In this document: positions 690 through 22,885 of the stretch, one piece after another
Numbering within the stretch: position 1 is the first letter of the stretch
How the letters are laid out: each line of letters starts with the position of its first letter
DNA from: Amoebophrya sp. A120
Taxonomy: Eukaryota; Protista; Dinoflagellata
NCBI GenBank assembly: GCA_905178155.1
Contig: CAJINV010000003.1
Location: 8,164,040-8,187,714 of the forward strand
DNA: 23,675 nt
Direction: 5' to 3'
The notes under the pieces: generated by a model
What the model saw: only the letters and a program-made list of their open reading frames with translations
What the model was told of the DNA's origin: nothing
The model's database searches: none
Translations under genes and position numbers: made by a program

Positions 690-3600
690 ATGATTATGTT
701 CTTTCCATCTGGTGGTCATGGTCTTCGCGCTTTGTTCTTGTCGTTGCCTCTCTTTTTACTCCATTTGCGCGTCGAGTTTTTCCCACTAACTCAGGCTGAG
801 GTCGTTCTCGGGCCCCGGCTGCCGCGCCGGTGGCCGGCACAACTACAAACCACGAGTTTGATTGGGCATGATCTTCCACACGATGACACGGTCGTTTCAT
901 CCTCCGTGGCGGCCGCGGCGGGTGCCGGGGCAGGCGACTCGGGTCGTTACGTGAACCTGACTCAGTTTTCCGATCCCCAGGGGCGAGATCTGCCGAATGT
1001 CCTGCCGGACTACGACTGTGAGCGTGTCTATGGAAGTGTCAGAATCGAAATCGACAAAATCGAAAAACTTGTAATGCATAAGATGTAGGGCACGCGTGGC
1101 CTGTGTTGGGGAGCAAGCAAATGAGACCGATTGCAAGCCTGTTTAGAGGAAGACGATGCGCTCCCAGAGTAGCATGACAGGAGCAGTCTTCTTTGCCCAA
1201 ACAGCATGACAAACTGGATCTTGGCGCTCCCGAAATTTGTCATGCGCCACCTGACCAGGGTGTAAAGAAAAGAAAGTGACAACGCCCTTTTTTTCCAGGG
1301 TGTAAAGAAAAGAAAGTGACCATTGTTTTTTCCAGGGTGTAAAGAAAAGAAAGTGATCATTGTTTTTTCCAGGGTGTAATTGTTTTTTCCAGTGATCATT
1401 GTTTTTTCCAGGGTGTAAAGAAAAGAAAGTGACAACGCCCTTCGATTTGTCGGTCTGCTCTTCGTGTGAATCGTAGAACTACGTCGCACTACGTTGCACT
1501 TCGTAAAGTGGTGGCGATAGGTTGCGAGCGTCTGGGTTTTGATTTTTTCAGGATCTTGCTTAGGACCTGTCATTTCTGTAGCACCTGTTCTGACGCAGGG
1601 AAGGGCAAGCAGAGGCGGCTTGCTTTGGACCCTGTGGCTATGCGGAGGTTGAGTGAGGCACTACGGAGGCGGTAGTAGTGCATTGCTCTGAAGCCAGAGG
1701 TGATTGAGGGTCTCGGCTCGCTTTCCCTCAGGCAACTCCCCAGATCGGTTGGTTCACCACTAAAACGGGCGGTGTTTCTCCAGATCTTGGTGGTGACCGG
1801 TTGAGACACCGATCGCCAGCTACTTACAAGCAGGAATATAGATAGTACGTTAGACAGTCACTCGCTCGCCTAAAGAAGCGAGCACACGATTGATTTTTTC
1901 AGGATCCGCCTTGTTTGTTTGGGCTTGCTCGTGATGCTTGCATGAGAGAGCTCCCATTTCTGGTGGAGGCGCCGCCCTGGTTGCGGATTTGGGTGGACAC
2001 AGCTCTCTCATGTCGGAGCACCGGTATGCCGCTGGGGAGTGCAGCTTGCTCTTTGCAGCTTGCTGGATCTGTCCGGATTAGCGCAGCAGAGGCTTTGCGG
2101 CCTCTTACCTGCGTTTCACTGCCACACGCATAAGGACCTCCAGGGCCGTGCATCACGTTCGGCCTCTTGACTTTAGACGCATGCCGTACGTCTGTCCCTC
2201 ATGCAGCATGGGCCCCGACTCATGTTGCATGTTGTAGCTGCCCCGCGCCGCGGCCCTTTCGTTGCGCCTTCTATCACCACTCCATTGTCGAAAGGCCTAC
2301 TTCTGTATGACAAGCGCTTTAGCAGTACTAGTGGCTATCCTTAACCTTATGCCATCTTAGCTTACGACTTTAGTCTGTTTTGTTTCCTTAATTACTTAAT
2401 GACGATGATGATGCTTAAGTTATGGTTGATTGTTTTATTTTTCATTAAGAGGCCTTCGCGCCACCCGGACGTCCTGCCGGTAGACCACCAATGTCATGCG
2501 CCACCTGAAAACTGAGGCTTCAACTGGTATCGATTTTGCGTATCACAAGTTTTTCGATTTTGTCGATTTCGATCCTGACACATTCATAGTGTCCCGGAAA
2601 TCCAGTTCCGCTATGTCGTCGGCGCCCCGGGACAGGAGGATGAGGACGTGCGGAACTTCGATCCGGACGAAGCGCTTGCAGGTGACGTCCCCGCTTCCAG
2701 TGTCTACACGGAACAGATCGATTTCGACCGCTGGTTCCGCGAGCACCAGGAACGCAGTGCGGCGGTGCGGAAGTTGTTTGAGCAGAAGGAGCACTTCGTC
2801 CATCGGGAGGGCGAGTACTCCGAGGCGCTGCGGCTGCTGCTCAACACTGACGAGGCGATGGCGCTGCGGCGGGCCCAGATGATGGCGCACCCCAACTTCA
2901 CGGAGGCGGCTGTCTCGCACTGCCCCCTCGGGGTGCTCTTCTGGGGTGCCATGGAATACGTAGCCTGCCACATGCTGCACTACCGAACCATCCACGATGC
3001 CTGCACCAAGCAGCGGGAGCTGCTGGAGGAGGTGCTGCTCCCGGCGACGCAGGACTACGACGTGCGGCTCGACTTCGGTTATGCTGGGATTTCGCAAGCG
3101 GCACGCATTGGCGCCGTCGAGCGCGAGACCCAGTTCCAGGAGCATCGCATGTCGGAGGACGCAGGGGCCAGCGCCAGCAGTGGACCCCAGGATGACGGAC
3201 AAGAAATCATTGCAAACCACGCTGCTGCAGAACGTAGTACCCTTGGTGACGACGCGAGTCATTCCGGAACAACGACTACATCACAGCTGCACTACCATGA
3301 CACGACACAGTACAGTGACCAGGTTTCTCGTCGACGAAAGATGATCCCGCAGTCAGAAACTCTCACGCTCGCGCCTCTAATGTACACACGCTGGCCAGTC
3401 TTTCACGTTCTGCTTCAGTCGCAGGTATGGCGGCAGCCCTACTTCGCCGACATCTACTACGACCGTGACATCAATTGTTTGCGCGACAGACCGCAGGAGG
3501 AGCTCCTGGAGGAACAGCGACACGAAGTAGACATCACGAGCGAAAGCTCGAGCGAACGAACGGATAATCATAATGTATTTTCATCTGCCGAATACACGCA

Positions 3601-6012
3601 GCGCGCCGATCCGCGGACGGCGTTGCGGCGCATCGATGCGGTCCGACAGGCCGTGGCCGAAGTTCAACGGCACACTACCTCAGCGGAAGTGATCGACAAG
3701 GTGCTGCCCGATGTCTTCATTGGTATTTTCCGCAATTTGATCGACGAGTCGGCCATCGAGCAAGCAGGTGCAGTCCACGACCTTTCGCAAGGCGAACATC
3801 AAGAGTTGGTGGAGAACAATGGAAAAGATCTTCTTGTTCCTAACAACGAGCAGGCACGAGTGAGGACTGACAAAATGAGGAAGATGTTGAACATGACGCG
3901 ATACGACAGCTTTCGGCGGGCGTTCAACAACTACGACTTGCAGTCGAGTTTGCACTTTTTTTGGCAGGACGATTGGACGCACAGCAGTATGGAGTTTGCG
4001 TTCACAGAGTGGATCAGTCAGCGGGCAAATTTCGAGCAGGTAGGTCGCGAGTGCTTGTGGAGCTACGTGGTCGCAAATCTGTTCAAGAATTACGTGTGTT
4101 TACAAACCGAAACGAAATGCAGCGAAATGTTTTTGCCCCTGATTGAGCTCAGCCTGACGGGAGCGCTGAAAGACGCGCCGAAGCTTCGCCGTGCGCTCAA
4201 CAGCGACGATGAGGGGTTCGCGCGTGACGACATGCTCCAAATGGTGGACCGCCAGTATCTCTGCAACTTCGAGTGTCTGTTCGCCTCGATGTGGCCTGTT
4301 TCGAGCTTTTTGTGGCTGACCGCCAGCATGACCCTGAAACACTCTTTTTCGCTCGACTTCTCCGAAGATTGGCTCTTTGGGCGCAGCGCAAAGTTGGCGC
4401 TGCTCACCGGCGACGGAGCTGAGCACTTCGAACAAAAGAGCGACGGCAAGGAGAGCACCGACGGCGACATCCACCAGAAAGATCGAGACAAGAAGCAGCG
4501 ACTACTGGGTCTACGCCGAGAATTCTTTTCTTCGCAAGATAATGGATTCTTGCAAGAACAATTTGACGAGGCAGTTCAAACGGTGTACGTGACGATGGTG
4601 TGGGGGAGCCTGTACGGCAAGTACGTGCCTCACTTCTGCGAGCACTTGCGGACAATCCTCGCAGAGGACGCTTCTTCTGATTTTGCCGTCTTTGCGCACG
4701 ACGACGTCAGCTACCGCTCCTGTGTGCAAGCATCGGCGGCGGCATCTGGTATAGTACCTGGTTCCGAGCACGCGGCAGCAGGGGCGGCTCGTCCTTCACG
4801 TCAACATGGCAGCGCTACTTCCGCAACGTTGAAGGGACGATGTTTTCGGGGGTACTCCAAAGCGCTGGGCAAGTTTTCGCTGTCTCTGGTCCTGCTCCAG
4901 CTGGGCTACTATCTTGTGCAAAAGTTTCTCATTCCAGAAAATTTTTGTATCCTATCACCAGGAGCAGATAGATTGCTTATACTGATAGATACTCTCGTTT
5001 TAATGTCGCAATGAGCGTACGGATGCGTTCTTTGAAAATTCTTGAATACCATAAATACGTGTGGTGCGGTGCTTTTGCAATGCATAGGCGCGATGTGTTA
5101 TACCTGGATTTTGACACCTATCTTCTACGGAACCCAACGCCGTTTCTGCGGCATCTTACCGAGGGAAACAATAATGACGTCGAGATGCTTGTGGGGGGGA
5201 GTATCTTCGACGACTGCATCAATAACGGGGTGTACTACCTTCGCAGCACACTGAGGACACAGGAGTGGCTGGGACGCATGTTTAAGTACCTGTATGACCG
5301 ACCTTATCTGGTGGACCAAAAGTGTTTCTCGGCCTTTCTGGGTTCGAACGCCGCTTACGAGCGCGTGCCTGAGGAGGTAGGTATCGCTTTCGCGGCCAAC
5401 CCGGCCGTCTACGTCGGCACGAGCGTGCCCTCGTGGCAACCGATTGACCCATACCGCTACTGGGCCCATTCGCATTGGTTTGTTGAACAAGACAAGGAAG
5501 CTACTCCGCCCGATGCACAAGTGGATGACGTAGGAACAAGATTGGCCCTCTTCGCATTTCACTTCGAGAAAGCCGCGTGGCTGGATCAAGTTGCGAAGGA
5601 CACTTTTGGGCTAGACGACGACAGCAAGCGCGAACGTATGCAGTCAGAGGGTTTCTTTGCAGTAGGAGCGGAGCAAGCTGCACCCGTAGACGTCAGATCG
5701 GAGCAGAAATTTGACGGTGCTGCTGCAGAGCATGGTGAAGTCGTGGCTTCTAGCACCTCGGAATCAATATCGCCAGATCATAGTATCCCGGAATTCGAGA
5801 TGTTTTACGTGAGGAAAGATGCCACCGAAATTCGTCGCTTTTTGGAGAGCAAAAAACTGACGCGGCTCCCAGAGACGCAAAAGACGTGCGTCACGCTGCC
5901 ACAGCAGGAAGACGACATCCCCCTCATGGTCCGCAAAAATCGGCACGGGGGACGGATTCCAGAGTACTTTCCAATTTACGGTCCGGAGCCCGACATCGCC
6001 CTCGCACTCTGA
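690..6012 (+). CDS. Glycosyltransferase with a C-terminal nucleotide-diphospho-sugar transferase (GT77-like, GT-A fold) domain and N-terminal signal peptide/anchor. Exons 690-1028, 2594-4909, 5092-6012; about 1191 aa
   Basis: Hydrophobic N-terminus LRALFLSLPLFLLHL...TQA. After splicing: K-x-LLQLGYDVLYLDFDTYLLRNP (DxD), INNGVYYLRST and DQKCF, typical of this family. All three exon lengths are multiples of 3. Start could be 690 or 696. Confidence 0.8.
1029..2593 (+). mobile_element. TIR element acting as a non-canonical intron (introner-like), 1565 nt
   Basis: TIR 1029-1084 vs 2533-2588, with 41 of the first 44 nt complementary and ends TAT...ATA. Perfect 5-bp direct repeat GTGTC at 1024-1028 and 2589-2593. 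Removal joins DYDCERV to PEIQFRYVVG in frame. Confidence 0.9.
1255..1440. repeat. Irregular ~33-bp minisatellite inside the introner
   Basis: ccagggtgta occurs five times, four of them followed by aagaaaagaaagtga, separated by c(a)ttgttttttt-type linkers. Confidence 0.85.
4910..5091 (+). mobile_element. Non-canonical introner-like intron, 182 nt
   Basis: tatcttgtgcaaaag (4910-4924) pairs with cttttgcaatgcata (5072-5086). Flanking pentamers are GCTAC/GGCGC. Removal gives LQLGY|DVLYLDFD and fixes the frame change between ORFs 2648-5014 and 5011-6012. Confidence 0.8.
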
Positions 6013-6659
6013 GCAGCAGAGACCAGGATCCGTTCGTGTCAGAGGTATTCCTTGTTTAGCTCGTCTACCTATGGGCCTGGTTTCTTTCATCATATGTTTT
6101 TGTGTCAAATTCCGCCGACGCCGACTTATCGAAAAACTCACTTGAAGATCTGAGTTCGTTCGTCGTAATTGCGTCTATTTTCGAATTGCCATAAGCAAGT
6201 TGAATTTGAAATGCAAATACTTGGTATAATTGGCATTGGGGGTCGTGGTCTAGCTATTTCCCAATTAGCGTTGTAGTTCGTAGGGTATGCTTGTGGTTAC
6301 GTGATGCGCCTGCGTCCAATCGCATTTGCATCCATGACTTTGCAGAACATCGTCAAGGGTCGTAGCGTAGCTTCACTTGTCGAGATACATAACTGCTTCC
6401 GGAAGGGTTTTAAACCAACATTTCATTGTCCATACGCATAGAAGATAAGTGCCGGCGTCGTTTTTTTTTTTGCACAGTTTTTTTACTGTAGTTGCCATTG
6501 TGACAGTGACAGCCCAAAGTCGCAACACTGGCGTCTGTACCTGTATTCAGAGGAAATCAAGAATAATCCTACCACCTACTCGCTTCACGAACCAGGCGAC
6601 TTCCCTTTCCAGCGCGTTGCCAAAGGCTCACCCCCCGAGCAGGTGCAGTAATCAGCGAC

Positions 6660-8771
6660 ATGCTGGGGTTTGCTTTGGGCCCACGGAAGGTGGCCGCTAG
6701 CGATGAGGGACTCCAGTCGGAGCAGGCAAAGAGCCTTCGAGAGAGGAATGAAAACGCGCTCGAGCTTTCCCCGAGCGAAAGACTGCGCGAAGACGTTTCG
6801 TTGCTGATGGCGCACGGACCTTCGACGGCGACGAAAAGCTCTTTCAGGCGTGGGAGCGGCGGTCCCCGGGAGCTTCGCGAGTGGCATCGCTTCAAGAAAA
6901 CGCAACTGGGTCCCGACCGGGAAGCCTTTGATCCTCGCTACAATCCCGTCAGTAATCCACCCAGGGACGATCAGGGGCCTCGAGCTGCGCGCGATGGCGA
7001 GCGTAAAGTAGATGCAGCAAAAAATCATGCTCTGGGTGCCCGGAGTGCAACTAGTTTTCGGTATCAGTGCCGAGATCCCACGGCACGTCCGGACACGTCT
7101 CCGAATCTTTTCGCGCTTTACGGAGAGCAGGAAGGCCGGGCGGCAGGAATGAAGGCGACTGATCTTCGGAGCGAATCCGCCATGGATCTGCTTGGTATCG
7201 TCGATGTGCGAGGAAGGGACAAAAACCAGGGAGAAGATGCATTCTTGCGCGACGAGGCAGATGCGATCAATGCAGCGTCGGCGCTGGACCCGCGAGGGAA
7301 AAAAAACTTCTTTCGGATTATCCAAACAAAATGATGCGACCGAGGTCACGCACACAACGTTGCCAATTTGAAATTCCGAACAGGCACGAAGCGAAGTGCA
7401 TTTTTGATGTATAGTCTGGTACGTGAGTAACATGAATACATTAGATATAGAATGAAATGATCTTTCTCTAATATGCTCCAAGCACATCATAGCGCTGCTG
7501 TGGTCTCAGCTTCACATTTTGTTTCGATACCACTTTTGTTCGAGCAACGCCACCAAAAGTACTTTCTGCCCCAAGCGAAGCATGCGGAATCAAGCACGCA
7601 AGAAAGATACAGCCAGCTCCCACCGCAACTGTTGGAGCGCCAACTGCGCACGGCCCACGCCGACGACCTCTCGGAGCTAGAGTTCAGTCATGCGCACGAA
7701 TCCGAGTTGATGCGGAACGAACGGCATCAATGGGCCCCTTCCGGAACGGAAGACGAGAACATGTACCAACAAGGCGGGAATGGATTGTATCCCGTAGGAA
7801 ATCTTCTTGAGGAATAGATAGTGGCTGCATGTGCACCATGTCATAGCAGATATTGATATTAACATATCAGCAGCTCCCGAAGAAGGAAGTGAGAAATTAT
7901 TTCCCTCGGCCTGGAGGTGTCAGTGATGTTTCGGTATTCATAGTTGGTACTTGTAGAATTATGTTTGCAGCAGCAACAAATTTATTGAGCTCAAGTAGAT
8001 TTTGTAGTGGATGATAAACGCGCTTTTCTGTTTCGGGATTTGGTGCAGAACTCCGCTACGGATCCCCGCGCGGGCAGTCGGCGGGACGAGCGCACCACGC
8101 GATCGCAGCATTCGGCTTACCACTTGCGAGGGTTCGACGTCTTCAATCGCACACGCACGTTAGAGGATCGTACCAGCTTCTTGGTGGACAAGGCCCACGA
8201 GTGGCTGTCGGGGGAGAAGCGGACCCCAGTGTCGCACGAACAGATCTCCCCACACACCTGCGACGCGGCACGCTCGGCCGCCCCCGCGTTTGGGAGCGCT
8301 GCGGATAACAATGTTTACAGCCAGCACCTGGCACGGTTTCGCTTCGACGAGCGTTATCACGCGGGCGACGCTCGGCACCAGCATTTTTTTAGTATGGAAC
8401 AGGAACCACCAGCACGACCGGCACGAGGCGGAGCAAGAAAATCCGCCTCATCTCACGCGGCGAACACGACGACCTTTCTGTACCCCGCGGCTTCGGGCCG
8501 GCGCGGTGATAGGCTTGCGATGACTGGTGTCACCGCAGCAAGGGAGGAACGTGCCGATGAGGAACGGCGGCAACTCGCACTGATAACCTATGAGCTACAG
8601 ACTCGCCGGGACCTACGGACACGCTACAAAATCCTCCCACGCCTGTTTGACCACTGGGCACAGCAGACGTGGGACAACGTCGAGGTCGACCACCGCTTCG
8701 CGGCCGCGCTGCGGCGCAACGTTCTCCGCAGAACGTTTGAGAGCTGGCGAAATGTCGCATCCGATCTCTGA
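6660..8771 (+). CDS. Hypothetical protein of about 554 aa with two C-terminal Sfi1-like (centrin-binding type) repeats. Exons 6660-7318, 7535-7787, about 8019-8771
   Basis: Three GC-rich co-frame ORFs separated by AT-rich segments with inverted-repeat ends. The C-terminus has KILPRLFDHW and NVLRRTFESWR, with the W residues 30 aa apart. The function is an inference. Confidence 0.6.
7319..7534 (+). mobile_element. Non-canonical introner-like intron, 216 nt
   Basis: tatccaaacaaaatg (7319-7333) pairs with cattttgtttcgata (7515-7529), 14/15. Flanking pentamers are CGGAT/CCACT. Removal keeps the frame and removes the stops. Confidence 0.8.
7788..8018 (+). mobile_element. Non-canonical introner-like intron, 231 nt (or 234 nt, ending 8021)
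   Basis: tatcccgtaggaaatcttcttgag pairs imperfectly with ctcaagtagattttgtagtggatg(ata). The 'TIR end plus 5 nt' rule gives a phase-0 in-frame join. No direct repeat remains. Confidence 0.6.
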
Positions 8772-9933
8772 CGGACCGCAGAGCGCACGTCTATTTGGCC
8801 GCTACAACAGGCGAGGGCAATGCCGCTTGCCAAACAAGCAAGCTGCAGCGGTGGCACACGAAAAGGTGAAGCGATTTTGCATGTCTGATTCCATGTATAG
8901 ATGCGTATAGATACTGCTTGTCCCTGCGACAGCAATTCGTTTTGTTTCTTATGACATTGTATGTAGTGCCGCCTGAAGTATCAGATATGTTTGCCTCCGT
9001 ATTGAGTTCACTCTCTTGTTCCTTATTGCTCGTCACCTCAAGCAAACCTGTGTGTCCAAAATAAAATTGAAAACACTGCTACCGCTATTCACCATAGAGG
9101 TGAAAAATACGCATGCGAAGAATAAGTGCGCTTTGCTGTTGCTGGCCCCTGTTGTGGTTGATCCGCGTAAAAAGATAGTGCTCCTCTCGCTATTTGTGCT
9201 GTCCGTCTGTAAGCGCTACCCACAGAGTCATAACTAGCAGTGCGCGACAGAATAAGTACGAATAGAAAAATGAACGTAAACTTAAGGAATCGCATGCCAT
9301 TCGAATACTAAAAAAAGATTGGGAGTTCTGTTCTACCGCAAGCTATGCGAAATGCAAAACATACACGGTAGTGCGTAGAAAAAGTGTCGCTACTACGACC
9401 TGCAGGTGACTAATACAGCTAAATTTCTTGAAAAAATTCCAACATAACTACGATCAGTACCGCCCCCAAGCGAATAAAGGCAAGATCCTATAACAAGCCA
9501 AAAGCGAGAACCCAAAGACACACTATCCGACTATAAGGCCTAATTATTCTGCGTCGATGTAGAGGTAGAAGTAGTGAAAATTGACACACCATACTTACAT
9601 AAACGAACCTCTTCTTAATGATCCATGTCATATGAATTTTGAACTTTCATCATATCACAGAAGGGTGCTGCATTTGCTTTTGCATTTGCAAAATAGTAGT
9701 GATAGCGACGCAGTGGCCGACATTTTCTAGTACGGCGAAAAAATTCAATAGCGGGGTCGTCAGCATAGAGGGAATTCAAAATTTATTCTAACAATCTGTG
9801 TACGACATAGGTGTAAGGAACGTAGCGTATATTTAGTCACTACTTAAGCATCCTAACTCAGTCCGGTTCACCAGCAGGACTACTAGTCGACACCTAACCT
9901 CCTAATAGTTCGCATCTATTGCAAGTTCTCAAA

Positions 9934-12618
9934 ATGTCTTCGCAAAACAACGCCGGAAAGGTCTTTATAGGCGGCTTAGCGCCGCAGTCAACGAAAGAAT
10001 CCCTGATGGCCTACTTTGCGGTACCTACTACTTCCGCGGAAGCGCACTAATTCCTGCTGATAGAATGTTGACTATCATGCTAAAAAAAAGTAAACCGCGA
10101 CGCAATACGCATTACATGCATGCCAGCACATTAGGGTCTATTCTTCGCGCTACCATTTGCATCAACACAAATACCACCATACATAAAAAAATTTATGTCA
10201 CTTAGCATGTAAAAAGTAGCAGCGGGGCATAGCCATAGGCACTTATCATGTAAGTTTAGGTCACAACACTGGACTTATGTCATAAGAAACTAGGAAACCA
10301 ACAAGGAGGTGTGTATGCTGCATGTCGTGGTCGTCGATTTACTATGGTTGCTACTGTATCCCATTTCCACGCTGCAGTTGGGAAAGAAATCAGTTTTAGA
10401 CCATATTTGCCGGTCAATCTAAGCATCCCATATATGTAGATACTACAAATGTCGTGCATGCTTCTGAATCATACATGTGTATTTTTTGAAAAAAAAAAAT
10501 ACTACAGCAATACGGGGCGGTGTCGGATGTCAATGTCATGATGTCCATGGATCAAGCGACTGGTCAGATGCGTTCCCGGGGCTTCGGTTTCGTCACCTTC
10601 CAGGATCCTAACAGCGTCGAAAGCGTATGATTTGATTTTTGCTGTTGATTTTTATGCCTCTTGGTTTTGTATCCTGCACCAGGTTCTTGCGGCACATACA
10701 CGCCGCCAAAGTCAAGAGGCCTAGTACCGGGTCATTTGCAACCCGTACTACGAAACAGAAACTAAGATATTTACAACTAATCCGCGCAGTTTCGATATTT
10801 CGGGAAAAATCAAAATTAGAATTGAAATCGCAACAAAAGTTAACTCATCGTCTGCCTTCGAGCGACGTAGAAGATGAATCCTAAACCCAAAGAACTCACT
10901 TTTTCTGAACAGTTGGTTGGCCCCGGAGTTTTTCAAGTCCGCATGAACGTGGATGGAAAGGACGTAGATGTGAAGCGAATTGACGAGAACCGAAAAGGCG
11001 ACAATGGACTTTCCGAAATCGATAGCCGAAAGATTTTTGTGGGTGGCCTTCCGGACACGTGTGACGGACCAACGTTGCGAGGTACTTTGTGCTTGTTCTC
11101 ACCCGCAAACCAGATGTTGACATTGGGAAATCTATTTGATGTTTCTTTCACTTCAAATAAATAGTTCTTCTTCTTCAGTGTCAAAACCAGTGCGCTGCCT
11201 GACCCGTCACGCAGCGAGCGCCTTTGGTCCTCGCTGAACTTTCGGGATCATCAGCATCATCATCATCATGACCATACAATAATATCCTTTTGCACTCCAA
11301 CAATTCTTTCAGAGTACTTCGTCAAATTTGACCCGCAAGTGCAGGAAGCACGGGTGCAGACGGATCCGGTTTCCGGGCGAAGTCGGTGTTTCGGGTACGT
11401 GACATTCTCGGACAAGAACGTCGTGCAGCAAGTCATCCAGATGCGGGACCAGCACTACATTGGCACGAAGTGGATTGATATCAAATGCAAAAATATGTTT
11501 GGGTCTGGAAGCGTGGGAACTTGTCATGCAGATTTTCCATGACCTCCGATGAGGTCAAGGTCTGGAATGCAGGACCTGGCATGACAGAAGATTCTCTGAG
11601 ATCTATATCATGCCGGTCCTGCATGAGAAACTCGCTCTCTACTTGGTCAAAAGTGGACAACTGTTGGCAGTCATGCAACACACATTTTTCCAGGGTGTAG
11701 GCTTAGCATCACAAGTTACTGCCTTCCAGATGACCCAGACATATTTGCAATGCATAATCGATGTGAAGGCGATCGAACCGAAGGGCGCGGCAGGGGGGAA
11801 AGGCAAGGGCGGCAAGGGGTTTGGCAAAGGCGGAAAGGGTGGAGGAAAGCAGAAAGGCGGCAAAAACTACAACCAATTCGGCGGCAAGCAGCAGGGCTAC
11901 GGACAGCCACAATATGGAGCCCCGCAGCAGGGATACGGTACTTCTACTTTTGCCCGATTTTTCGTTGTAGTCCCTCATCTCTACTTCTCACGCATAAGTA
12001 AAAATCTCCCCGTACTAGATGATGGCTAGCTCTTGTGATAAGCGGATATTTGTTCAGAGACGAAGCGGATATTTGTTCAGAGACGAAGACGCCGGATGCA
12101 ATTCACACGGGAAGATGATCGCAGCAGGCACGATCACGATGGATGATCGTCGTTCTTTCACTGGAACAGCCATGGTCAATTCGTGCACAGCATTGTATCA
12201 TTTTTTCATCTCTGCAGGTGCTCCGCCGGCGCAGAACTACGGTGCGCCCGCATACCAGCAGCAGGCCTACGGGCAGCCGCCACCGGCGTACCAGCAGCCC
12301 GCGTACGGCCAACCACCAGCGTATGGCGCCCCGCCGGGTGGCTACCAGCAACCGCCGATGCAGCAACCGTACCAAGGATCTCCCGGTCAGTACCAACAGC
12401 CCGGAGCCGCGCCACCAGCACAAGGTACATTGTTCATTCGGACTATAAATAAGTAGTTCATCTTGCTTGTGATTCTTCATTCGAATGCGCGAGGCTTATC
12501 CTGGTATTCCAATGAGTCTATCAGTATCATACAAAACCTTACAGGATATGCACCGCAATACGCAGCAGCACCACCCCAAGGCCAGTACTACGACCAGTCG
12601 CGTCCGGCTCCCTACTGA
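9934..12618 (+). CDS. Two-RRM RNA-binding protein (hnRNP A/B/D, Musashi, Hrp1-like) with Gly/Lys-rich and Q/P/Y-rich tail; about 334 aa. Exons 9934-10020, 10508-10624, 10683-10716 (or 10710), 10938-11081, 11313-11478, 11762-11937, 12218-12424, 12545-12618
   Basis: RNP2/RNP1 motifs KVFIGGL and RSRGFGFVTF, then KIFVGGL and RSRCFGYVTF. Also DGKDVDVKR, KWIDVKA, and a C-terminal RPAPY (PY-NLS-like). Intron phases are consistent throughout. Confidence 0.9.
11479..11761 (+). mobile_element. Non-canonical introner-like intron inside RRM2, 283 nt
   Basis: About 50-nt imperfect TIR (tatcaaatgcaaaaatatgtttgggtctggaag...aacttgtcatgc vs gcatcacaagtt...cttccagatgacccagacatatttgcaatgcata). Direct repeat ATTGA/ATCGA. 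Removal restores HYIGTKWIDVKAIEPK. Confidence 0.9.
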
Positions 12619-14734
12619 TTCAGGATATTTGGCGGCATCTCACTTAGTAGTAGTACGCAAACACCAGCGATCCAAAACAAAACCTATTTTTAATTCTATG
12701 TAACAACACCCACCTGGCGAGCTTTCTATTTTTCAGCTTTTGAGAACTGTAGTTTTAATAGATCATACTAGCACCCAGAAATCCAAGATTTGTGCTAGTC
12801 GAGGATTTTTGCGGGGCTGGTCAGTAAACTCTATACACGACAAGGAGTTTACTGCTTGTATTCTTCGACATGTACCACGCGCGAGATTAGATAACCAAAG
12901 AATCTGAGGCCAAGGAACAACATCTCAAGAACATAGGCTTTTTGAACACGTAGCGGAACTAATGGCCCCTGCCAAGATTGATCCGTCTTGATTATCAGTT
13001 TTCGGCACTGAGTTACAACTTTGTCGTCTCTCTGGTGCACTCAGATAGGCGTACCGTTTACAAAAATTTCAACCTCCACATTTGGAATTGGAAGCTCATG
13101 CCGTTCGCAGCAGCACAGCATAACGTCGAAAATTGCACGACAGATCACAGACGGTAGAAAGAGGCTTTTTCTCCGATTTTCGTCTTCGTGGAGCGGAAAT
13201 TAGCACGGTGCATTGATGCATGCATTGCTTTTGCTACGGTTGTATATTGACGGATGACACACCAAAGAGAAAGATGCAGTATGCGCAACGAAGGATTTGA
13301 CGACCACGCCACTTTTGTATGCTGTACTTGTATTTCCACTTTCCCTAACAGAATTGTCATTCCCTTTCCTCGCGCATAGCGACGGAAGAATTTTATATGC
13401 GAATTTCTTGTCGTTTCACCCAAAATCAAAAATAGAAGACCAAAAAGTAGATCGGATACTGAGGTTTCGGGGCAGCTGACGCAGTGACCAACAATCAGCG
13501 ATCCGCTGTTGATGTGTTTTATCGTTGTTCACGAGAACGAGAAGGTAATGGTTTTTTCGGCTGAGTGCTTTGTGTATACAAATTCAAATTTGAAACAGTT
13601 GTTGAGTAAACCTACCTGCCTAACAGCAACAGCACTTCATAGTCTTTGCAAGTCGGGAGTTGCGAGTTTTAGCTTTGTGTTTCGACGGCGGTCAAGGACT
13701 GCTCAGAACGTGAGGATATTCGAGGATCATGAGCGAAACTGTGTAAAAAGTGAACTCGTGCGCTAGAAAGTGAACTCGTGCGCCATTCCACTGGTCATTC
13801 GAAGGCCGGATTGCAATGTGGCTTTATTATCCTGCACGAGTCGTGATTAGGAGCCGAGCGAGAGCTACAGCTGCAGCTAGCGGTTCAGATTTTTTCCCGC
13901 ACGGCGGGAGTAGTGCATAGTACTTTTTTTGAAAACTGAATTTCCGTCGGGCCACCTGTGATTTGCTTGAGATTCACGGTAAACTGATCATGCCTTTCTC
14001 TGGCGTCCATCCCTGGATTATTGCGTGCTGCGTGAGCCCTGGGGTGTGCGACAGCGTGATAAACCGTGCTGCGTTACGTTGACGGTGTGCTGGCTGGATT
14101 CTCATCCACGCAATGCTGGTTCCGAGTTCTTGTGCATCTTCACTGAGATCATGATAATCCGGTCGGCGAGGGATCTTGTAGTTTTTGACGTCAAATAAGA
14201 ACCGGACCCACGACGAAAAGTCATACACTTTGCTCGAGCCTCTCACTGCACGACTCGCCGCGAAATTAATTGCTGGTGAAGAAGAGGAACACTAAGGAGC
14301 CGCACGCGGCGGCACAGTCACGTCTGCACAAAAGACAAGGCGCTCGCGCGAACCGAAAGTATTCTTGCCGTCCGCACGCCTCGAAAAAATAAAAAAACCA
14401 CGCCAGTGTCGAATGGAAAAAGACCGACGCCACGGCAGTTGATGATGAAGTAGCCCGGAGTAAACGGAGTCTCCGGCGCGAGAACAACCGTGACCATGCA
14501 GACGATGAAGTTCCTTTCGGAGCTTAGTTTTGTTCCGTAGAGACGATCGTTTTTCTATCGCTCCCGGGTCACCACGGAGCGTCCTGTCTAAGAAGATCAA
14601 AGACAAAGGCCAAAGGAAACGCAGCGTAAGTCGTCAAACCTGACGCATCTACTTAGCAGTGCCTTTACTCTCTGTGTCGCAACGTGACGAAGAGACTTCA
14701 CTACTTATAGAGATGAAAAAGGTGATCTTCCCGC

Positions 14735-16306
14735 GTGTTCTTATCCCTAAGAGAAATCGCGCCATACCGTCGCGATTCGTGAGTTTTTTTCATTCTAGGC
14801 GAGGCCTGGCGTGTCTGAGGCCAACAAAAGCGAGACCGCCCAGGGCTATCCAAAGCCTTCGCCGCGCATCCTCCAGAGGGTCGCGCTTTCGTGCTTGGCG
14901 CAGCCCCAGCGCATGCGCCAGGGAACGCGCTGCGCGCTGACAGAATAACCGCCGGCCACTGCGTCCAAGTTCGCGCGCCTGGGCGCGAGCTGATGCCCCA
15001 GCTTGGAGGGGCTCTTTTTTTCCCCAAAGACCCCCCCCAAGCCGGGGCTACGCCGGCGGTCACACCGGGCCGCGGCAGTGTGCGGGCCCATTCGTCTCTC
15101 TTTGTGTCAGATAGCAGATGATAGCCCCTGCGGTGTTGTCTTTGTTGCCTGCGCCGTGCCATCGGTCCTAAATTAGGACCGATGGGGCGCTGGCTTATCG
15201 CGGAAGAGAACACCCGGACAAGCCAGCCGCGCAGACCAGTGGGGGCGAACGTCGTAAAATGCTGGCAACGGCAGGCCCCCCCTCACCAACTTCCAAAAAG
15301 CCAGCTGCCTTCGGATAGCCGTCAACTTCGCGTAATGCTTCCCCTCCCCGCGAGGACCACCACGACTGGGCAGCAGTGTCGGAATGTCGCTCTCCAGCTT
15401 CCAACCTGCAGTAGGGTAATTGGATCAGAATTGAAGCTGCTCCTCCAGATGTTCCCGTTCTCTCAAAAGTGCTGTTCTTATCCCTCCTGTTCGTGCATAG
15501 ATAAGAACACCACTTTTAGGTCGTTACAAACGTGTTCTTATCTATGCACCATTTGGAGGATAAGAACAGCATTTTTGCGAGAGCGGGAACATCTGGCGCA
15601 CAAGATGTCATTCTGCTTCGTGCCAGCCACCAACTTCTGGTCGCTACAAACGTGTTCTTATCTATGCACGGCGTGGAGGATAAGAGCAGCAGTCTTCGAG
15701 AGCGGGAACATTCGGCGCAGAAGCTCCAACTCTGTTTCGTGCCAAAACATCAATCGCAGGTCGTTGCAGTAGGCGTTCTTATCTATCTTTTTTGAGCGTT
15801 TAAACGAACACCAGGCGGGAAGCTTTTCGGGTCTTCTGCCAGTGCGTCCACCACGGCCGCGAAAGCGGTCCGGTGCCAACGGTGAGTGATTGGGGCGGCG
15901 GGTGAGAGATGGGGGCGCGCTTGAAGAGTTCCAAGAGGTCTCGAGGGGCCTGCGCACCAAGTCTGCACGAGCCGGCTTGCGGCCTTTTTTGGGTCGCGAG
16001 TACGTCGGGCTCGGGGCCGCGGAAAAGATGCCCGCCTGCGCCGGGTGGGTGTGTTGTGAGTGCCCGCGGGGCGCGTCGATCTGCGCAGTGGGGGGGGCCT
16101 CTTTAGTCTATGTCTAGGCTCGCCGGGGTGCTAGCGTGCCTGTTGGTTCCTCTAGAAAGACGCCTGGGCCGCGTGAAAAAACCCACCAGGGAAGGCAACA
16201 GCACTCCTACGCAGGCGCGACCATAAAAGCTGCAGCGCCTGCGTTGGCGCAAAAAACAGGGCAAATCCCGACGGTATGCTGCGAATTCCTTTAGGGATAA
16301 GAACAC
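14735..16306. mobile_element. Non-autonomous TIR/foldback-like element of about 1.57 kb
   Basis: 45-bp TIR 14735-14779 vs 16262-16306 (38/45), with weaker inverted similarity further in (14785-14827 vs 16140-16181). The terminal motif gtgttcttatc recurs internally. No credible ORF. Confidence 0.7.
15445..15786. repeat. Internal 120-bp-period repeats with one inverted copy
   Basis: gtgttcttatctatgcac...ggaggataaga(a/g)cagca...gagagcgggaacat occurs at 15532 and 15652, partially at 15773, and reverse-complemented at 15445-15510. Confidence 0.8.
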
Positions 16307-16681
16307 TGCTGGGTGTCGCAACGTGACGAAGAGACTTCACTACTTCGCCGCAACGACGTGACGAATTTGAGTAAGGTGAGTTTCCCCCACGGCGGCCCAC
16401 GACAACTGAGACTTCGCGACTGGGACTTGCTTTGCTTCCATCTACTGCGACGACAGGGTACGAACTCAACCGCATAATTCACGGGCGAAGAAAAGCATCA
16501 AAAGCTGGTCGTTTGGTAGAGGTATACTGAACGTGGCCAAGACCATCTCGGCACTTGGAGCGACCTGTTGTACGAACGGAGTTTGCTTCTAGCGTTGACA
16601 TTCTCGTCGCCTCGGTGTGCAAACAGCAACGTCTGGAGGTGGGACTCTTCTAAGTAGCCCTGTGCATCCCAGGAAGTGAAA

Positions 16682-19600
16682 ATGCGGGTTCTTATAGTAG
16701 ACGGCTTCACCAAGTCCAGGCGGGGCAGGGAGGCCTTCAACGATTTCAAGTACACGATCACCAAGGCATTGGAAGGACCCTACTACAAATACCTCACTGC
16801 GGTGGCGCTAGCGGTATACATAAGTAATATCCGGGACGACTTTGTGGTCCAGGATTTTGTCGTTTTTTGTTTTTCTTTGTCGTGCTTGTTTCATGTCTCT
16901 ACTTATTCTGAATGCGTATGCGACTTCGAGTCTCATCGCAAACGAGATGAAAACCACGACCGCCTATTTTCCGGTTGCAAACTGAACATCAGGTTCGCAA
17001 TTACCGCCAACTTGATGAATTTCTGTTCGACATGGGTGGGAACGGGGATTCATCATGCTTGAAGGCGTTTCAAAATTTGGATATGATTTTTATCGGCTGC
17101 GACGAGCCGGCGTTGGTGCCGTGGGGTGAGGCCGTAAAGGGCGTTCGCCTTCTGCTGAGGCAGTGTATTCAGTACGGAACGCCGACTTTCGCGACCGGAT
17201 TCGCCTCCCACTTGATACCCTACCTAGTGCAATTACGAGGCGAGCACATCCGAGTCATAAATGGGTGCGGGCTTGGCGGCAGCTACAACGAAATCTCAGC
17301 TCTCCCCGCGAAAGTGAAGTACTTAACATCACTACATTTTTATCATTGTCCTAAACACGATGTGCTGCTGTTCCTGTTCCTGCGGCCGACACTTCTTTTG
17401 TAGACGTTTTTTGTCACGTTGAGCGGGCTTCTTGAAGTTGAATATATCCAAATCAACTTCGATGTTTCTATCGTTTCCTTGATCTGGTATTCGCAGGAAG
17501 TCCGCGCTTCCGCCAGACACATTTCTGGATGCCGAAAATGGAGACATATACCAGCGGAAGGAGTATTGCGACTTCAAGCACGTTGGGAACGTTGGTGTTT
17601 ACAACCCGAAACTGAAGCAAGGGCGCAACGTCTACAAAACGGTACATTTTCATATGTGTTTTATCCGTTGTTGTTTGTTGTTGTCGAGATTGCTCAGAGG
17701 TTACAGCTTGGGCACCTGTTAAATAAGCGGCCGCGTAAGCTCTTTGTAATTGGTGCGTATTTCGCGTCTCGGATAATTTCACGAACAGTGCAGTGCACAC
17801 CCTGAAACTTTCCCCAGGGTCGCAATATTTGGCAGCTTTCGCGCCCGCCGGTCGCAAGAACAAAAGCGGGCCAGCGATCCATCGTGGGTTGGCGCAGCTT
17901 TTGTGGCAGCGCCTTTCCCGCGGATCAGACGGGCGCGCGAACGCGATTGCGTGGGCGACGCCTCTGGCACTCCGGGCCGGGTTGGGGAGGAGGTAGGAGG
18001 ACGGCGGGCCAAGCCGCTCCGAGAACGCGTTCTCGAGCCGATTTGGCCGGGGGGCGCAGGCGTTCTCGAGCCGGTTTGGTCGCTCGCGGATGGGCCAGAG
18101 GTCGGAGCGGCCGAAGTCGGCCCGGAGTGGCGGTTTGGTCGGGAAGCGATGCTGGGGCCCGGCACGCCGGGCCGGGTTGGGGACGAGGCGGGAGGGCGGC
18201 GGGGCAGGTCGGATGGGCGACTGGCTCTGGCACTTCGGGCCGGGTTGGAGAGGGCGACCAAATCGGCGTGAGGTCGCGTTCTCGAGCCGGTTTGGTGGGG
18301 CTGCTGACCAAATCGCCTCGAGATCGCGGTCTCGCGCCGATTTGGTCGCCCGATGGTGGACGCCCCAGGACGGGTTGGGGAGGGCGACCAAATCGGCGCG
18401 AGACCGCGACTTGGTGAGGCCGCTGACCAAATCGTCTCGAGATCGCGGTCTCGCGCCGATTTGGTCCACCTTTGGTGAGGCTGCTGACCAAATCGGCCCG
18501 AGATCGCGGTCTCGAGCCGATTTGGTCGGCCGCGGTTGGACGGGTTGGAGAGGCCGATGGCCAAATCGTCCCGAGATCGCGGTCTCGAGCCGATTTGGTC
18601 GGCCGCGGTTGGACGGGCTGGAGAGGCCGATGACCAAATCGCCCCGAGATCGCGGTCTCGAGCCGATTTGGTCGGCCGCGGGTGGACGGGTTGGAGAGGC
18701 CGATGGCCAAATCGCCCCGAGATCGCGATCTCGAGCCGATTTGGTCGGCCGCGGGTGGACGGGTTGGAGAGGCCGATGACCAAATCGTCCCGAGATCGCG
18801 ATCTCGAGCCGATTTGGTCGGCCGCGGGTGGACGGGTTGGAGAGGCCGATGACCAAATCGTCCCGAGATCGCGATCTCGAGCCGATTTGGTCGGCCGCGG
18901 GTGGACGGGTTGGAGAGGCCGATGACCAAATCGTCCCGAGATCGCGATCTCGAGCCGATTTGGTCGGCCGCGGGTGGACGGGTTGGAGAGGCCGATGACC
19001 AAATCGTCCCGAGATCGCGATCTCGAGCCGATTTGGTCGGCCGCGGGTGGACGGGTTGGAGAGGCCGATGACCAAATCGTCCCGAGATCGCGATCTCGAG
19101 CCGATTTGGTCGGCCGCGGGTGGACGGGTTGGAGAGGCCGATGACCAAATCGTCCCGAGATCGCGATCTCGAGCCGATTTGGTCGGCCGCGGGTGGACGG
19201 GTTGGAGAGGCCGATGACCAAATCGTCCCGAGATCGCGATCTCGAGCCGATTTGGTCGGCCGCGGGTGGACGGGTTGGAGAGGCCGATGACCAAATCGTC
19301 CCGAGATCGCGATCTCGAGCCGATTTGGTCGGCCGCGGATGGACGGGTTGGAGAGGCCGATGACCAAATCGTCCCGAGATCGCGATCTCGAGCCGATTTG
19401 GTCGGCCGCGGGTGGACGGGTTGGAGAGGCCGATGACCAAATCGTCCCGAGATCGCGATCTCGAGCCGATTTGGTCGGCCGCGGGTGGACGGGTTGGAGA
19501 GGCCGATGACCAAATCGTCCCGAGATCGCGATCTCGAGCCGATTTGGTCGGCCGCGGGTGGACGGGTTGGAGAGGCCGATGACCAAATCGTCCCGAGATC

Positions 19601-22600
19601 GCGATCTCGAGCCGATTTGGTCGGCCGCGGGTGGACGGGTTGGAGAGGCCGATGACCAAATCGTCCCGAGATCGCGATCTCGAGCCGATTTGGTCGGCCG
19701 CGGGTGGACGGGTTGGAGAGGCCGATGACCAAATCGTCCCGAGATCGCGATCTCGAGCCGATTTGGTCGGCCGCGGGTGGACGGGTTGGAGAGGCCGATG
19801 ACCAAATCGTCCCGAGATCGCGATCTCGAGCCGATTTGGTCGGCCGCGGGTGGACGGGTTGGAGAGGCCGATGACCAAATCGTCCCGAGATCGCGATCTC
19901 GAGCCGATTTGGTCGGCCGCGGGTGGACGGGTTGGAGAGGCCGATGACCAAATCGTCCCGAGATCGCGATCTCGAGCCGATTTGGTCGGCCGCGGGTGGA
20001 CGGGTTGGAGAGGCCGATGACCAAATCGTCCCGAGATCGCGATCTCGAGCCGATTTGGTCGGCCGCGGGTGGACGGGTTGGAGAGGCCGATGACCAAATC
20101 GTCCCGAGATCGCGATCTCGAGCCGATTTGGTCGGCCGCGGGTGGACGGGTTGGAGAGGCCGATGACCAAATCGTCCCGAGATCGCGATCTCGAGCCGAT
20201 TTGGTCGGCCGCGGGTGGACGGGTTGGAGAGGCCGATGACCAAATCGTCCCGAGATCGCGATCTCGAGCCGATTTGGTCGGCCGCGGGTGGACGGGTTGG
20301 AGAGGCCGATGACCAAATCGTCCCGAGATCGCGATCTCGAGCCGATTTGGTCGGCCGCGGGTGGACGGGTTGGAGAGGCCGATGACCAAATCGTCCCGAG
20401 ATCGCGATCTCGAGCCGATTTGGTCGGCCGCGGGTGGACGGGTTGGAGAGGCCGATGACCAAATCGTCCCGAGATCGCGATCTCGAGCCGATTTGGTCGG
20501 CCGCGGGTGGACGGGTTGGAGAGGCCGATGACCAAATCGGCCCGAGATCGCGATCTCGAGCCGATTTGGTCGGCCGCGGGGGGACGGGTTGGAGAGGCCG
20601 ATGACCAAATCGGCTCGAGATCACTCCGAGCTGGAGTGGGAGTGGTGGGGCTGGTCAGCTGCTGCCCAAATCGTCTCGCGCCGATTTGGTCATCCGCGGG
20701 TGGACGCCCCTTGCACCCCGAGCTAGGTCGGGGAGTCGTGGGGTTGGGTCATGCGCCGGGTTGGGTTGGAGAGGGCGACCAAATCGGCGCGAGACCGCGA
20801 TCTCGGGCCTGTTTGGCTTCCGTTTCGTTGTTTGGGGGCCTTAACCCGCCGACCTGAGTCTGCGACTTCGCAGAAAACGCGGGCCGTGTTTTCCGCAAAG
20901 TCGCAGTTTCAGGGCGGCGGGTTAAGGCCCCCAAACAACGAAACGGAAACCAGCCAGGCCCGAGATCGCGGCCCCGGACCGGTGGGGGCGCGGCTGAGGA
21001 AATCGGCTCGAGCCCGCGTTCTCGGGCCTTTTTTTAGTCCGATATCGTTGCCCTCGTTCATTTTCGGAAATCGCCGGAAGCCACAACGAATTCGATTTTG
21101 AGAAATCGCCGGAAGCCACAACGAGTTCGGTGTTGCTAACACCAAATACAAGCACCATACCAACAACTTACGCGCCCAAGGAATTAACAGTTGCTCAAGC
21201 TGTAACTCAGAGGTTGATTGCTGGCACCGGTTGCCTTCGGGCTGGAATGGCCCTGTAGTGATTCAAGTACTAAAAATGACGCGCTGACCACGTCGACGAA
21301 AAACAAAAACTGAATAAAGAATCATGTTCCCATCAGCGTCCGTCCACCGTTCCGGGTGATGATCCTGTCGCTGCGCGGAGGGACGAGTGCGTTGTCGAGC
21401 TGAGCTCTACTCGGTACGCCAACCACTGGATTTTGCGGGACTTGCCGAAGCGGTTCGTGGGAACAACCAGTGCCTTGTGGATGGTGCACGACAAGATCAG
21501 CCAGCGCATGCAGTCTTTCCTGGTGAGCCGCCCGAACAGCCTGCCGCAGCTGATCGGGCTGGACCAAACCATTTTCGGGTGCCAGTTCGGTATCTCGCGC
21601 AAGTACCCGGAGACAATGCAGCTGCTGCTCAACTTCGCGACGCACTACTGTGAGGAAATGATCCGGAACCCCGGGAAACGCGTCGGCGCGGTGGGGACGG
21701 ACATTTTGTCCAATGACGTCGAAGAGACCACAGTGAGCGACATGTGGGAGGAAAAATTGGAACACGAGCTCAAGAGGAGAAAGGCACAGCAAACGAGGGT
21801 GTTGCAGGAGGCCGATTTGGATGAAGAAGTTGGTACATTTTTACTTGCTTTTATTCAGACGACGCCTACTATTCCATTCTATTTCGACACCAGAACCCGG
21901 GATCATGAGCAAGTGCACCTATTTGTTGCGATGCAGTCTATCTGACGAGACATCGCTGATGAACCTATGACTGGAACAAGCAAGAACAAGATTGATCGTG
22001 TTTGTCGAAACATGAAGTTGTGAGTAAACACCAGCAGCAACAGGAGGAGCGTATGATTGAAGACGAAGCTTGTGCAGACGTAGCTAGTTCTGGGGGATCT
22101 AACTATATAGATCCTTGTGCCTCTATGCATATTGAAGTTGTCAACATGTCTGTGATTGAGTGAATAAAATAAACGCAACGATCTTTAGGAAATATCGGCG
22201 GCTTTCCAGTGCGTGCGCTGACAGCAGGCCGAGAGAGCATGAGCTGTGCGAGTGCATCGGCAAAAGCACCGGCGTCTTCCTCACAGAACAAGGAGAACCA
22301 GAACAACTACACCGACGATTTTGCCGCCCTCTTTGCGAGCAGTGGCTGGCCCCTCCCTGCCGAAACCGCTGGAGGCGCTACGTCCAGCACGAGCAGAATG
22401 CCCCCAAAATCCGCCCCGTCCCGCTCGAAGCTTCGCTCGCGGCCCGTGGGACGAGGAGCCTCGGGAAGCGTGTCTTCGTTGTTCAAGGAAGAAGACACAG
22501 GCTTCGTGGCGACCATACGAAAAGCTTTGGAGACCACTGAGGTGAATCTCATGGACCACACGCGAACTCTATCCCCAGTGAGTTTCGCGTACACGTACAA

Positions 22601-22885
22601 AAAGTTCGGTTCTTGCATGACAAAACTTGCTTTATTCAATGCTAAGTAGCCCGCATGAAATAAATTGTCAAAACTTGTGATGCATTTATTTAAACGTGTG
22701 TGCGGGAAATTTGTGTTGCATAAACGTTCTCGAAGGTGGAGATCCGTAAGATGCTCCACCCCGAGGCCGACGTGCAAGCGATTACACCCTACGTGCCGCC
22801 CAAGGTGGTGCGGGTCGTGTCAAGAGGGGCCAAACCTTTTACGCGGTGGAAGTACTACGAGCAGCTTGAAAAGTACAGGCTCTGA
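16682..22885 (+). CDS. Hypothetical protein with a degenerate class I glutamine amidotransferase-like N-terminal domain. Exons 16682 to ~16786, ~16975-17318, 17497-17641, 21337-21832, 22189-22569, 22728 to ~22885; 3' end uncertain
   Basis: MRVLIVDGF, LDMIFIG and PTFATGFASHLI echo the GATase1 strand and elbow pattern but lack the catalytic Cys. Phase-compatible GTAC...AG introns at 17319-17496, 17642-21336 and 21833-22188. A possible further donor lies at 22873. Confidence 0.6.
18486..20602. repeat. 73-bp tandem satellite, 29 full units, intronic, with degenerate copies at ~17980-18485 and 20603-20810
   Basis: Unit gaccaaatcgtcccgagatcgcgatctcgagccgatttggtcggccgcgggtggacgggttggagaggccgat. Unit starts at 18486, 18851 and 20603 fit the 73-bp period exactly. 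Confidence 0.97.
20795..20971. repeat. Long near-perfect inverted repeat (hairpin of about 177 bp)
   Basis: ccgcgatctcgggcctg...ttccgtttcgttgtttgggggccttaacccgccg...ctgcgact...gaaaac pairs with gttttc...agtcgcag...cggcgggttaaggcccccaaacaacgaaacggaa...caggcccgagatcgcgg. The loop is near 20883. Confidence 0.92.
21067..21124. repeat. Short direct duplication (23 bp, two copies)
   Basis: gaaatcgccggaagccacaacga at 21067 and 21102. Confidence 0.85.
22570..22727 (+). mobile_element. Probable introner-like intron, 158 nt (a GT-AG alternative at 22578-22735 is also in frame)
   Basis: tatccccagtgagtttcgcgtacac pairs in register with gtgtgcgggaaatttgtgttgcata. Pentamers are AACTC/AACGT, and the internal family motifs gcatgacaa and aacttgtgatgc are present. 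The join gives TLSKVEIRKMLHPE. Confidence 0.6.

Follow-up and report, generated by a model that had tools for sequence, protein, structure and literature searches.

TAT...ATA introns of Amoebophrya sp. A120 belong to a known transposon-shaped class and agree on a -1/+4 cut register at informative sites

We have analysed 23,675 nucleotides of the genome of Amoebophrya sp. A120 (assembly GCA_905178155.1, contig CAJINV010000003.1, positions 8,164,040 to 8,187,714 of the forward strand; hereafter the window, in whose own numbering features are given), in which seven segments, named E1 to E7, begin with TAT and end with ATA or, once, ATG. These segments are real, transposon-shaped introns without GT-AG ends and represent a class that is already known. 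The new element is modest and testable: a one-base correction of where the introns are cut, together with a fixed register in which the 5′ cut falls one nucleotide before TAT and the 3′ cut four nucleotides after ATA (-1/+4). We favour, with moderate confidence, the reading that they derive from short non-autonomous DNA transposons and are removed by a relaxed form of the host's major spliceosome, with cuts at -1/+4 wherever the position can be read.

Results

Seven TAT...ATA introns of a known class

An earlier note on this stretch had listed six such segments, all of which are found where it placed them; E7 is additional. All lie on the plus strand, and none of the seven has GT..AG ends in the -1/+4 register, in which they are delimited here. 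E1 (1028-2592; element proper 1029-2588) has a perfect 5-bp duplication, which leaves its own register ambiguous, and E2 (4909-5090, CT..CG; element 4910-5086) interrupts a glycosyltransferase motif; both are hosted by gene 1 (690-6012), which encodes a nucleotide-diphospho-sugar transferase domain (PF03407). E3 (7318-7533, TT..AC; element 7319-7529, 3′ end deduced) and E4 (7787-8017, GT..AA; element 7788-8013, the one ending in ATG) interrupt gene 2 (6660-8771, 554 aa), for which no Pfam match was found in the two exons scanned; the 5′ end of E4 assumes that E3 consists of its terminal inverted repeat (TIR) unit plus 5 nt. E5 (11478-11760, AT..CG; element 11479-11756), a highly expressed member of a high-copy family of ~260 bp, lies in RRM2 of gene 3 (9934-12618), a two-RRM RNA-binding protein gene with five further GT-AG introns. 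E7 (14741-16303, TT..AA; element 14742-16299) is located in a transcribed region upstream of gene 4, and E6 (22569-22726, predicted CT..CG; element 22570-22722), placed by protein evidence, lies within gene 4 (16682-23265) along with GT-AG introns. Gene 4 had been counted among four complete genes, but it continues past the window, which encodes residues 1-597 of 776 (residues 598-776 of protein P0004 are missing). As previously proposed, removal of each TIR unit plus 5 nt restores the frame, leaving genes 1-3 and the in-window part of gene 4 free of stops, while retention of E1-E4 introduces stops.

The exons of genes 1 and 4 are 100% identical to the annotated A120 proteins P0001 and P0004, and orthologs of both proteins occur in Amoebophrya A25 and in a third source. 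According to the available text of the A120 genome description (PMC7789003), more than 60% of A120 introns are non-canonical; a subset carries 8-20-nt inverted repeats and 3-5-nt direct repeats, with the A120 repeat beginning TAT; and the non-canonical introns occur in mixed genes and in repeated families, the mechanism being left open. As the window is A120 and the class was published for the A120 genome, these elements are a known class in its genome of description, and the assignment to Amoebophrya introner elements made in the earlier note is borne out.

The individual elements resemble that description to different degrees. Their terminal inverted repeats form 10-14 Watson-Crick pairs of 15 in six of the seven elements and 7 of 15 in E6, and the boundary direct repeat is intact in E1 (5/5), nearly so in E5 (4/5), absent from E7 and decayed in the others. 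TAT is present at all seven 5′ ends; the run of at least AAA expected after seven further bases is correctly placed in three (E2, E3, E5), and among 100 copies of the E5 family, described below, A is found in 95-99 at each of repeat positions 11-13. In the DNA-like contig set X1, the repeated elements E1 and E5 reach depths hundreds of times the single-copy level. With TIRs, a duplication of fixed length, many dispersed copies and no transposase, the elements match a miniature inverted-repeat transposable element or other non-autonomous TIR DNA transposon; no Pfam match was found in the three longest open reading frames scanned in E1 and E7.

Removal from RNA

Three contig sets were compared over positions 400-17800: X3 and X5, which are RNA-like (this label is a guess), and X1. 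X3 and X5 act as RNA in that seven of their listed joints skip GT-AG introns, and X1 acts as DNA, one of its contigs running unbroken and with 0 differences across 2560-11587, an interval that covers E2-E4. Contigs drop rare variants, so that low-level retention or rare DNA excision could escape this comparison.

Five of the seven elements are removed in the RNA-like contigs. At E2, an X3 contig joins 4908 to 5091, a deletion of TIR to TIR plus 5 nt, and the A120 protein P0001 reads across the element. E5 is missing from X3 and X5 through the joint 11476>11760, carried on the same contig as four GT-AG introns; removal thus operates alongside GT-AG splicing in the same transcripts, as had been claimed. 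In gene 2, an X5 exon piece ends at 7317 and pieces of X3 and X5 begin at 8018 without extra letters; X5 has 253 nt between these pieces, leaving 447 nt missing, which equals E3 and E4 at element plus 5 nt each, and both are therefore counted as removed. The E7 joint (14740>16304) is unambiguous in X3 and X5, with depths of 155.8 and 54.7 that resemble those of the flanks and short sides of 30 and 39 nt. For E1 no joint is among those listed for X3 and X5; it is supported by the frame, by shorter copies at seven loci and by the ortholog P0003, which is continuous across it, matching 993-1028 and then 2591 onward. Two GT-AG alternatives named in the earlier note were discarded: with 1026-2605, residues present in P0003 would be lost, and 22578-22735 disagrees with P0004 and with its orthologs P0005 and P0006.

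Hairpins flanked by direct repeats are a classic substrate for template switching. The joints could accordingly reflect switching of reverse transcriptase across hairpins, or else excision from DNA in a subpopulation of cells, and the guessed RNA label of X3 and X5, as well as the loss of rare variants from contigs, leave some room for such an artefact. We consider it very unlikely: the joints of E7 and E4 have no overlap, joined forms occur at full flank depth, X3 shows zero depth in a bin within E7, and the same contigs skip GT-AG introns as RNA would. Moreover, X1 is unbroken across E2-E4 and has depth 0 for the listed joints of E5 and E7, and retention would give stops where the orthologs are continuous.

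The ~900 nt upstream of E7 (13822-14740) are strongly covered in the RNA-like contigs and joined through E7 toward gene 4. No ATG-started open reading frame longer than 44 aa was found there, and the region is either a very long 5′ untranslated region or a separate non-coding transcript.

The cut register

Junctions of this kind are ambiguous to the extent that the two 5-nt flanks agree, and equivalent registers were therefore listed for each element. E2 allows -1 or 0 relative to the first T of TAT, E3 -1, 0 or +1, E5 any value from -2 to +1, and E7 only -1. E4, whose downstream exon begins at 8018 and not at 8019, allows only -1 if E3 is the element plus 5 nt. E6 allows -5 to -1, P0004 mapping to 22191-22568 and then from 22727 onward; the protein cannot separate -1 from -2 to -5, and the annotation is itself not a read. 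The only value common to E2, E3, E4, E5, E6 and E7 is -1. The probability that any common register would appear by chance is 0.005 for the six elements and 0.097 without E3 and E4, and E2 and E6 by themselves, without recourse to E4 or E7, already leave -1 as their one common value.

The earlier note had placed the 5′ cut at the initial T of TAT and the 3′ cut 5 nt beyond ATA (0/+5), both set purely by the end of the stem. Its length rule holds, with length and frame right in all six of its elements, and E1, E2, E3 and E5 are compatible with this placement. We give the placement itself hardly any credence: the contig ends exclude it at E7 and E4, at E7 the end of the stem and the cut do not coincide, and at E6 P0004, P0005 and P0006 all have F where 0/+5 gives L. 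The F had been written down as a prediction before the protein mapping, which then confirmed it. Furthermore, TA-xx classes would be expected under 0/+5, and none is among those listed in Table S4 of PMC7789003.

The -1 register implies a donor of the form N-TAT. All 11 canonical donors in the window read GTAY (seven taken from listed RNA joints, the rest from protein mapping or length), and all seven element donors read N-TAT, so that the TAT of the elements occupies canonical positions +2 to +4. Table S4 of PMC7789003 gives nine top non-canonical A120 classes, all with T at +2; in a post hoc model these classes receive 14% of the expected mass under -1 and 0% under 0/+5. For A25, in which the repeat begins with TTA, each of the nine top classes begins with TT.

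Several observations weigh against a register that is fixed. A listed joint shows it directly at E7 only, with a short side of 30-39 nt, and other middle exons of 253 nt in gene 2 are stop-free as well. A match of TAT to GTAY would occur by chance in about one in six of the possible registers. In Table S4, A stands at -2 in eight of the nine classes, a feature that does not follow from -1/+4 by itself and needs an extra assumption; only one of the nine falls in the model's top 16, and reaching six of nine requires half of the junctions to have been assigned to the wrong strand. The cuts might instead fall at several positions inside the duplication, as the legend of Fig. 3 in PMC7789003 states, the agreement seen here being an effect of small sample size; the legend of Fig. 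S23, which puts the repeats 1-5 nt from the splice sites, can be taken in the same sense. Given that E2 and E6 alone meet at -1, we regard this as unlikely. Variability of the reported register is also to be expected, because alignment is ambiguous when 70 of the 100 duplications in the E5 family are perfect.

Terminal pairing and the role of the stem

The ends of the elements are complementary, as had been noted. Over TIR positions 4-15, the seven elements form 57 Watson-Crick pairs with their own partner ends against a permutation mean of 35, a value reached by one of the 5040 permutations, and their end duplexes have energies of -13 to -29 kcal/mol, compared with -2 to -10 for 11 canonical introns. 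By itself, the motif is no commoner in the window than expected by chance: there are 74, 20 and 3 TAT..ATA/ATG combinations with at least 10, 11 and 12 of 15 positions paired, against 84.7, 16.1 and 2.1 in 20 shuffles. A scan for N5-TAT...ATA-N5, which had been proposed for finding further elements, would therefore not discriminate by itself.

The same note held that the terminal stem guides removal; as a rule that the stem end alone sets the cut, this is doubtful. Folding predicts an end-to-end stem for E1, E3, E4, E5 and E7. For E2 and E6 the predicted end pairing is at most 0.1, though X3 shows E2 removed, which also weighs against a role of pairing in the mechanism that we favour. In E7, TAT and ATA lie 7 bp inside a longer inverted repeat and a 5-bp duplication is lacking; the joint still falls at -1/+4 from the motif, and this single case, with its short side of 30-39 nt, suggests that the motif, rather than the stem end or the duplication, sets the cut. 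Folding z-scores of whole introns are strong for E5 only (-6.95), the values for E4, E2 and E3 being -2.16, -0.68 and -0.72.

The mobile unit and the E5 family in a related assembly

In X1, 45 contigs join unrelated sequence before position 1029 (E1) and 53 do so behind 11756 (E5), from which it follows that the repeated unit ends at TAT and ATA. A 25-nt end of E5 matches 119 loci, all in contigs named JACKZZ01. One host exon of the family in these contigs is 70% identical to Amoebophrya A25 and 90% identical, over 53 aa, to another eukaryote protein; no identical A120 protein was found for it, and JACKZZ01 is therefore treated as a relative and not as A120. Of 123 distinct ends, 8 had no partner end, 7 lacked TAY, 1 had a short flank and 2 were duplicates; with these and 5 copies above 320 bp removed, 100 remained. 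The exact-match search favours young copies. In addition to the 70 perfect 5-bp duplications, 24 of the 100 copies have one mismatch, and perfect duplications of 4 or 6 bp are found in 0 of 100.

A six-frame stop-free test on 64 of the 100 copies was passed by 55-62 of them at every removal length, and a codon model trained on the genes of the window was used instead. The model calls the strand correctly in 97% of held-out 240-nt pieces; flanks were long enough for its use in 66 copies. In 42 of these 66 both flanks indicate the same strand, and 32 of the 42 are in frame after removal of the element plus 5 nt (p 2e-8 against one third). Among 58 confident calls in coding-like DNA, 31 copies are forward and 27 reverse. 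Pfam matches on 7 of 198 flank frames, from six copies (four forward, two reverse), agree with the sign of the codon model in 6/6, and one reverse copy lies within a DGAT motif that runs uninterrupted in two homologs. Judging from the sequence of these flanks, reverse-orientation copies would be spliced too. Only 16 of the 58 copies have, within about 15-20 nt of their ends, a GT..AG pair whose use would keep the frame. Imperfect duplications are found in 8 of 31 forward and 2 of 27 reverse copies, a difference that is not significant (p 0.087), and the register could not be read from copies with mismatched duplications.

At repeat positions 4, 5 and 7, the left and right ends of E5-family elements are consistently different, which predicts a 3-bp outer helix, an internal loop and a long stem. 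One family copy (L058:1270-1770) adjoins a domain of Tpt1/KptA RNA 2′-phosphotransferase, a tRNA-type splicing enzyme; this has no bearing on the introns described here.

Other features of the window

The A120 annotation P0001 lacks the first exon of gene 1 and begins at 2879, downstream of E1. Since P0003 matches on both sides of E1, the gene model has probably been truncated by this intron. E1 is itself a member of a multi-copy family of ~310 bp that carries a nested insert of ~1.24 kb (about 1250-2491). The insert has a direct repeat of ~17 bp at its borders and includes a 37-bp tandem repeat; parts of it are multi-copy and occur in RNA-like contigs. Upstream of gene 1, a ~200-bp sequence is present twice, in near-identical form, within positions 1-340. 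Sequence just behind the stop of gene 1 appears to be joined to sequence shortly before the start of gene 2 by removal of a 551-nt GT-AG intron (6045-6595); the record lengths in X3 and X5 fit this, which suggests a read-through or dicistronic RNA of the two genes.

E7 is flanked by a direct repeat of ~33 bp (14675-14706 and 16313-16345) that breaks contigs, and its internal 120-bp repeats (15518-15786) carry copies of its own terminal motif. In gene 4, the 3.7-kb GT-AG intron 17642-21336 contains a GC-rich 73-bp tandem array (18472-20622; 29.5 copies, 99% identical), and the RNA-like contigs leave at 17641 and resume in the next exon.

Discussion

In the reading that we favour, the introns would have originated through insertion of short non-autonomous DNA transposons with TAT...ATA ends and a 5-base target duplication. 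The 5′ cut would be read as N-TAT, that is, as a GTAY donor that can now dispense with its initial G, and the 3′ cut would be measured four bases from the ATA motif, AG not being needed; pairing, or a protein bound to both ends, may hold the ATA motif beside the donor. Of the two duplication copies, the intron would then remove one base on the left and four on the right. This would return the mRNA to the sequence that preceded the insertion, so that insertion would be tolerated at any site and in either orientation. The earlier note had spoken of a second intron system apart from GT-AG splicing. This separateness is not supported, as the alignment of TAT with GTAY is at least as good an argument for the ordinary spliceosome as for a separate system. 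Splicing of TIR-derived introns by a modified spliceosome has a precedent among tunicates, and the -1/+4 geometry recurs with spliceosomal bases in Polarella class 12, both treated below. According to the available text of PMC7789003, A120 keeps 83 of 89 spliceosomal proteins as well as U2, U4, U5 and U6, with U1 not detected; an Amoebophrya with mainly GT-AG introns is reported to have U1 (PMC12005148).

A number of findings speak against the spliceosome as the enzyme. The two orientations are equally common in the E5 family, G at +1 (11/58) and terminal AG (3/58) are both at background, and GT-AG occurs in 0 of 58 copies in any register of TIR plus 5 nt. No branch-point motif common to both arms of the family elements was seen, and in spliceosomal geometry the four bases after the stem leave little room for a branch point. 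Finally, the canonical introns of the same genes keep a strict GTAY..AG.

The missing bias for G, AG and orientation would fit a non-spliceosomal endonuclease-ligase of the kind proposed for euglenids, which would read the paired TAT/ATA, cut in a staggered way at -1 and +4, and join the exons. So would E7, where the cut lies within an unbroken stem, its distance from the motif unchanged, and the failure to detect U1. There are partial precedents in Euglena, where, according to the portion of PMC12501133 available, introns have a 3-nt 5′ spacer and a 5-6-nt 3′ spacer around a paired motif and one has been reported to leave as a circle. Nevertheless, we regard such an enzyme as possible but doubtful: the -1 register aligns TAT with GTAY, the spliceosome of A120 is near-complete, E2 and E6 have no predicted stem, and no candidate enzyme is in hand, none having been searched for. 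The same geometry also occurs with G and AG in Polarella (10.1101/2020.10.14.339549). A more general and slightly more doubtful proposal is a spliceosome-independent code, by which facing TAT and ATA in any RNA duplex would be cut at -1/+4 and the flanks ligated, whatever the flanks, the orientation or the end of the stem. If true, this would amount to a rescue at the RNA level, convergent with that in Euglena, through which a whole transposon family could sit at any point of a gene without harm.

The closest relatives of the introns described here are those of A120 itself in PMC7789003, with the same TAT inverted repeat, 3-5-nt direct repeats and non-GT-AG ends. Where the available text of that paper treats the splice position relative to the hairpin as variable or unknown, we find -1/+4 at every informative site and an N-TAT donor; the occurrence of both orientations and the absence of a G/AG bias, established on 58 copies of a relative, also go beyond it. 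No statement of a fixed -1/+4 register or of an N-TAT donor for A120 was found in the literature text searched, a search that did not extend to subscription journals or bioRxiv supplements, and, judging from the legend of Fig. S23, the offsets may already be plotted in figures of PMC7789003 (Figs 3, S19 and S23). A second study, also available in part (PMC12130899), describes the A120 families as mostly TIR DNA elements, many of 150-350 bp and largely non-canonical, whose 5′ site is often co-opted from the duplication. Its automated duplication lengths are 2-5 nt, and the 19 of its 58 A120 rows available to us show no single register; its family 38, with integrase-like open reading frames, is a possible mobiliser that is not present in this window.

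Outside A120, the accessible part of 10.1101/2020.10.14.339549 describes an introner class in Polarella glacialis (class 12) that has a 5-nt duplication, NNAGG, and the same -1/+4 geometry, the first donor base being the last base of the duplication and the acceptor its positions 3-4; other classes in Polarella work in either orientation. Polarella needs G and AG at those places, whereas elements of the A120 type do not. Euglenid nonconventional introns, as far as the text of PMC12501133 could be consulted, likewise have a paired terminal motif with a fixed short 5′ and a longer 3′ spacer, coexist with GT-AG introns and have been given a MITE-like (miniature inverted-repeat) origin, as here. 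They belong to an unrelated lineage and differ in their CDG/CHG motif, in spacers of 3 and 5-6 nt and in a purine after the cut, and their signature N3CDG...CHG N5-6|R fits none of the seven elements, all of which have T at +4. In Fritillaria borealis, introns derived from TIRs and target-site duplications escape GT-AG, which the available text attributes to a modified U2 spliceosome (PMC11282704; 10.1101/2025.08.15.670264). Their preferred ends are AG-AC and AG-AT, whereas the A120 elements are constant only for T at +2 and A at +3.

The -1/+4 register provides a precise rule where the available text of PMC7789003 calls the cut position unknown. If fixed, it would allow tens of thousands of ambiguous A120 junctions to be annotated correctly, and it changes the encoded residue where the duplication has decayed, as in the F, not L, at E6. 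The question of mechanism narrows to whether the intron leaves as a lariat or a circle, and whether T at +2 and A at +3 or base pairing is read. If the spliceosome carries out the removal, A120 would have a spliceosome that needs neither a G at +1 nor a terminal AG; if it does not, A120 would have a second nuclear splicing machine.

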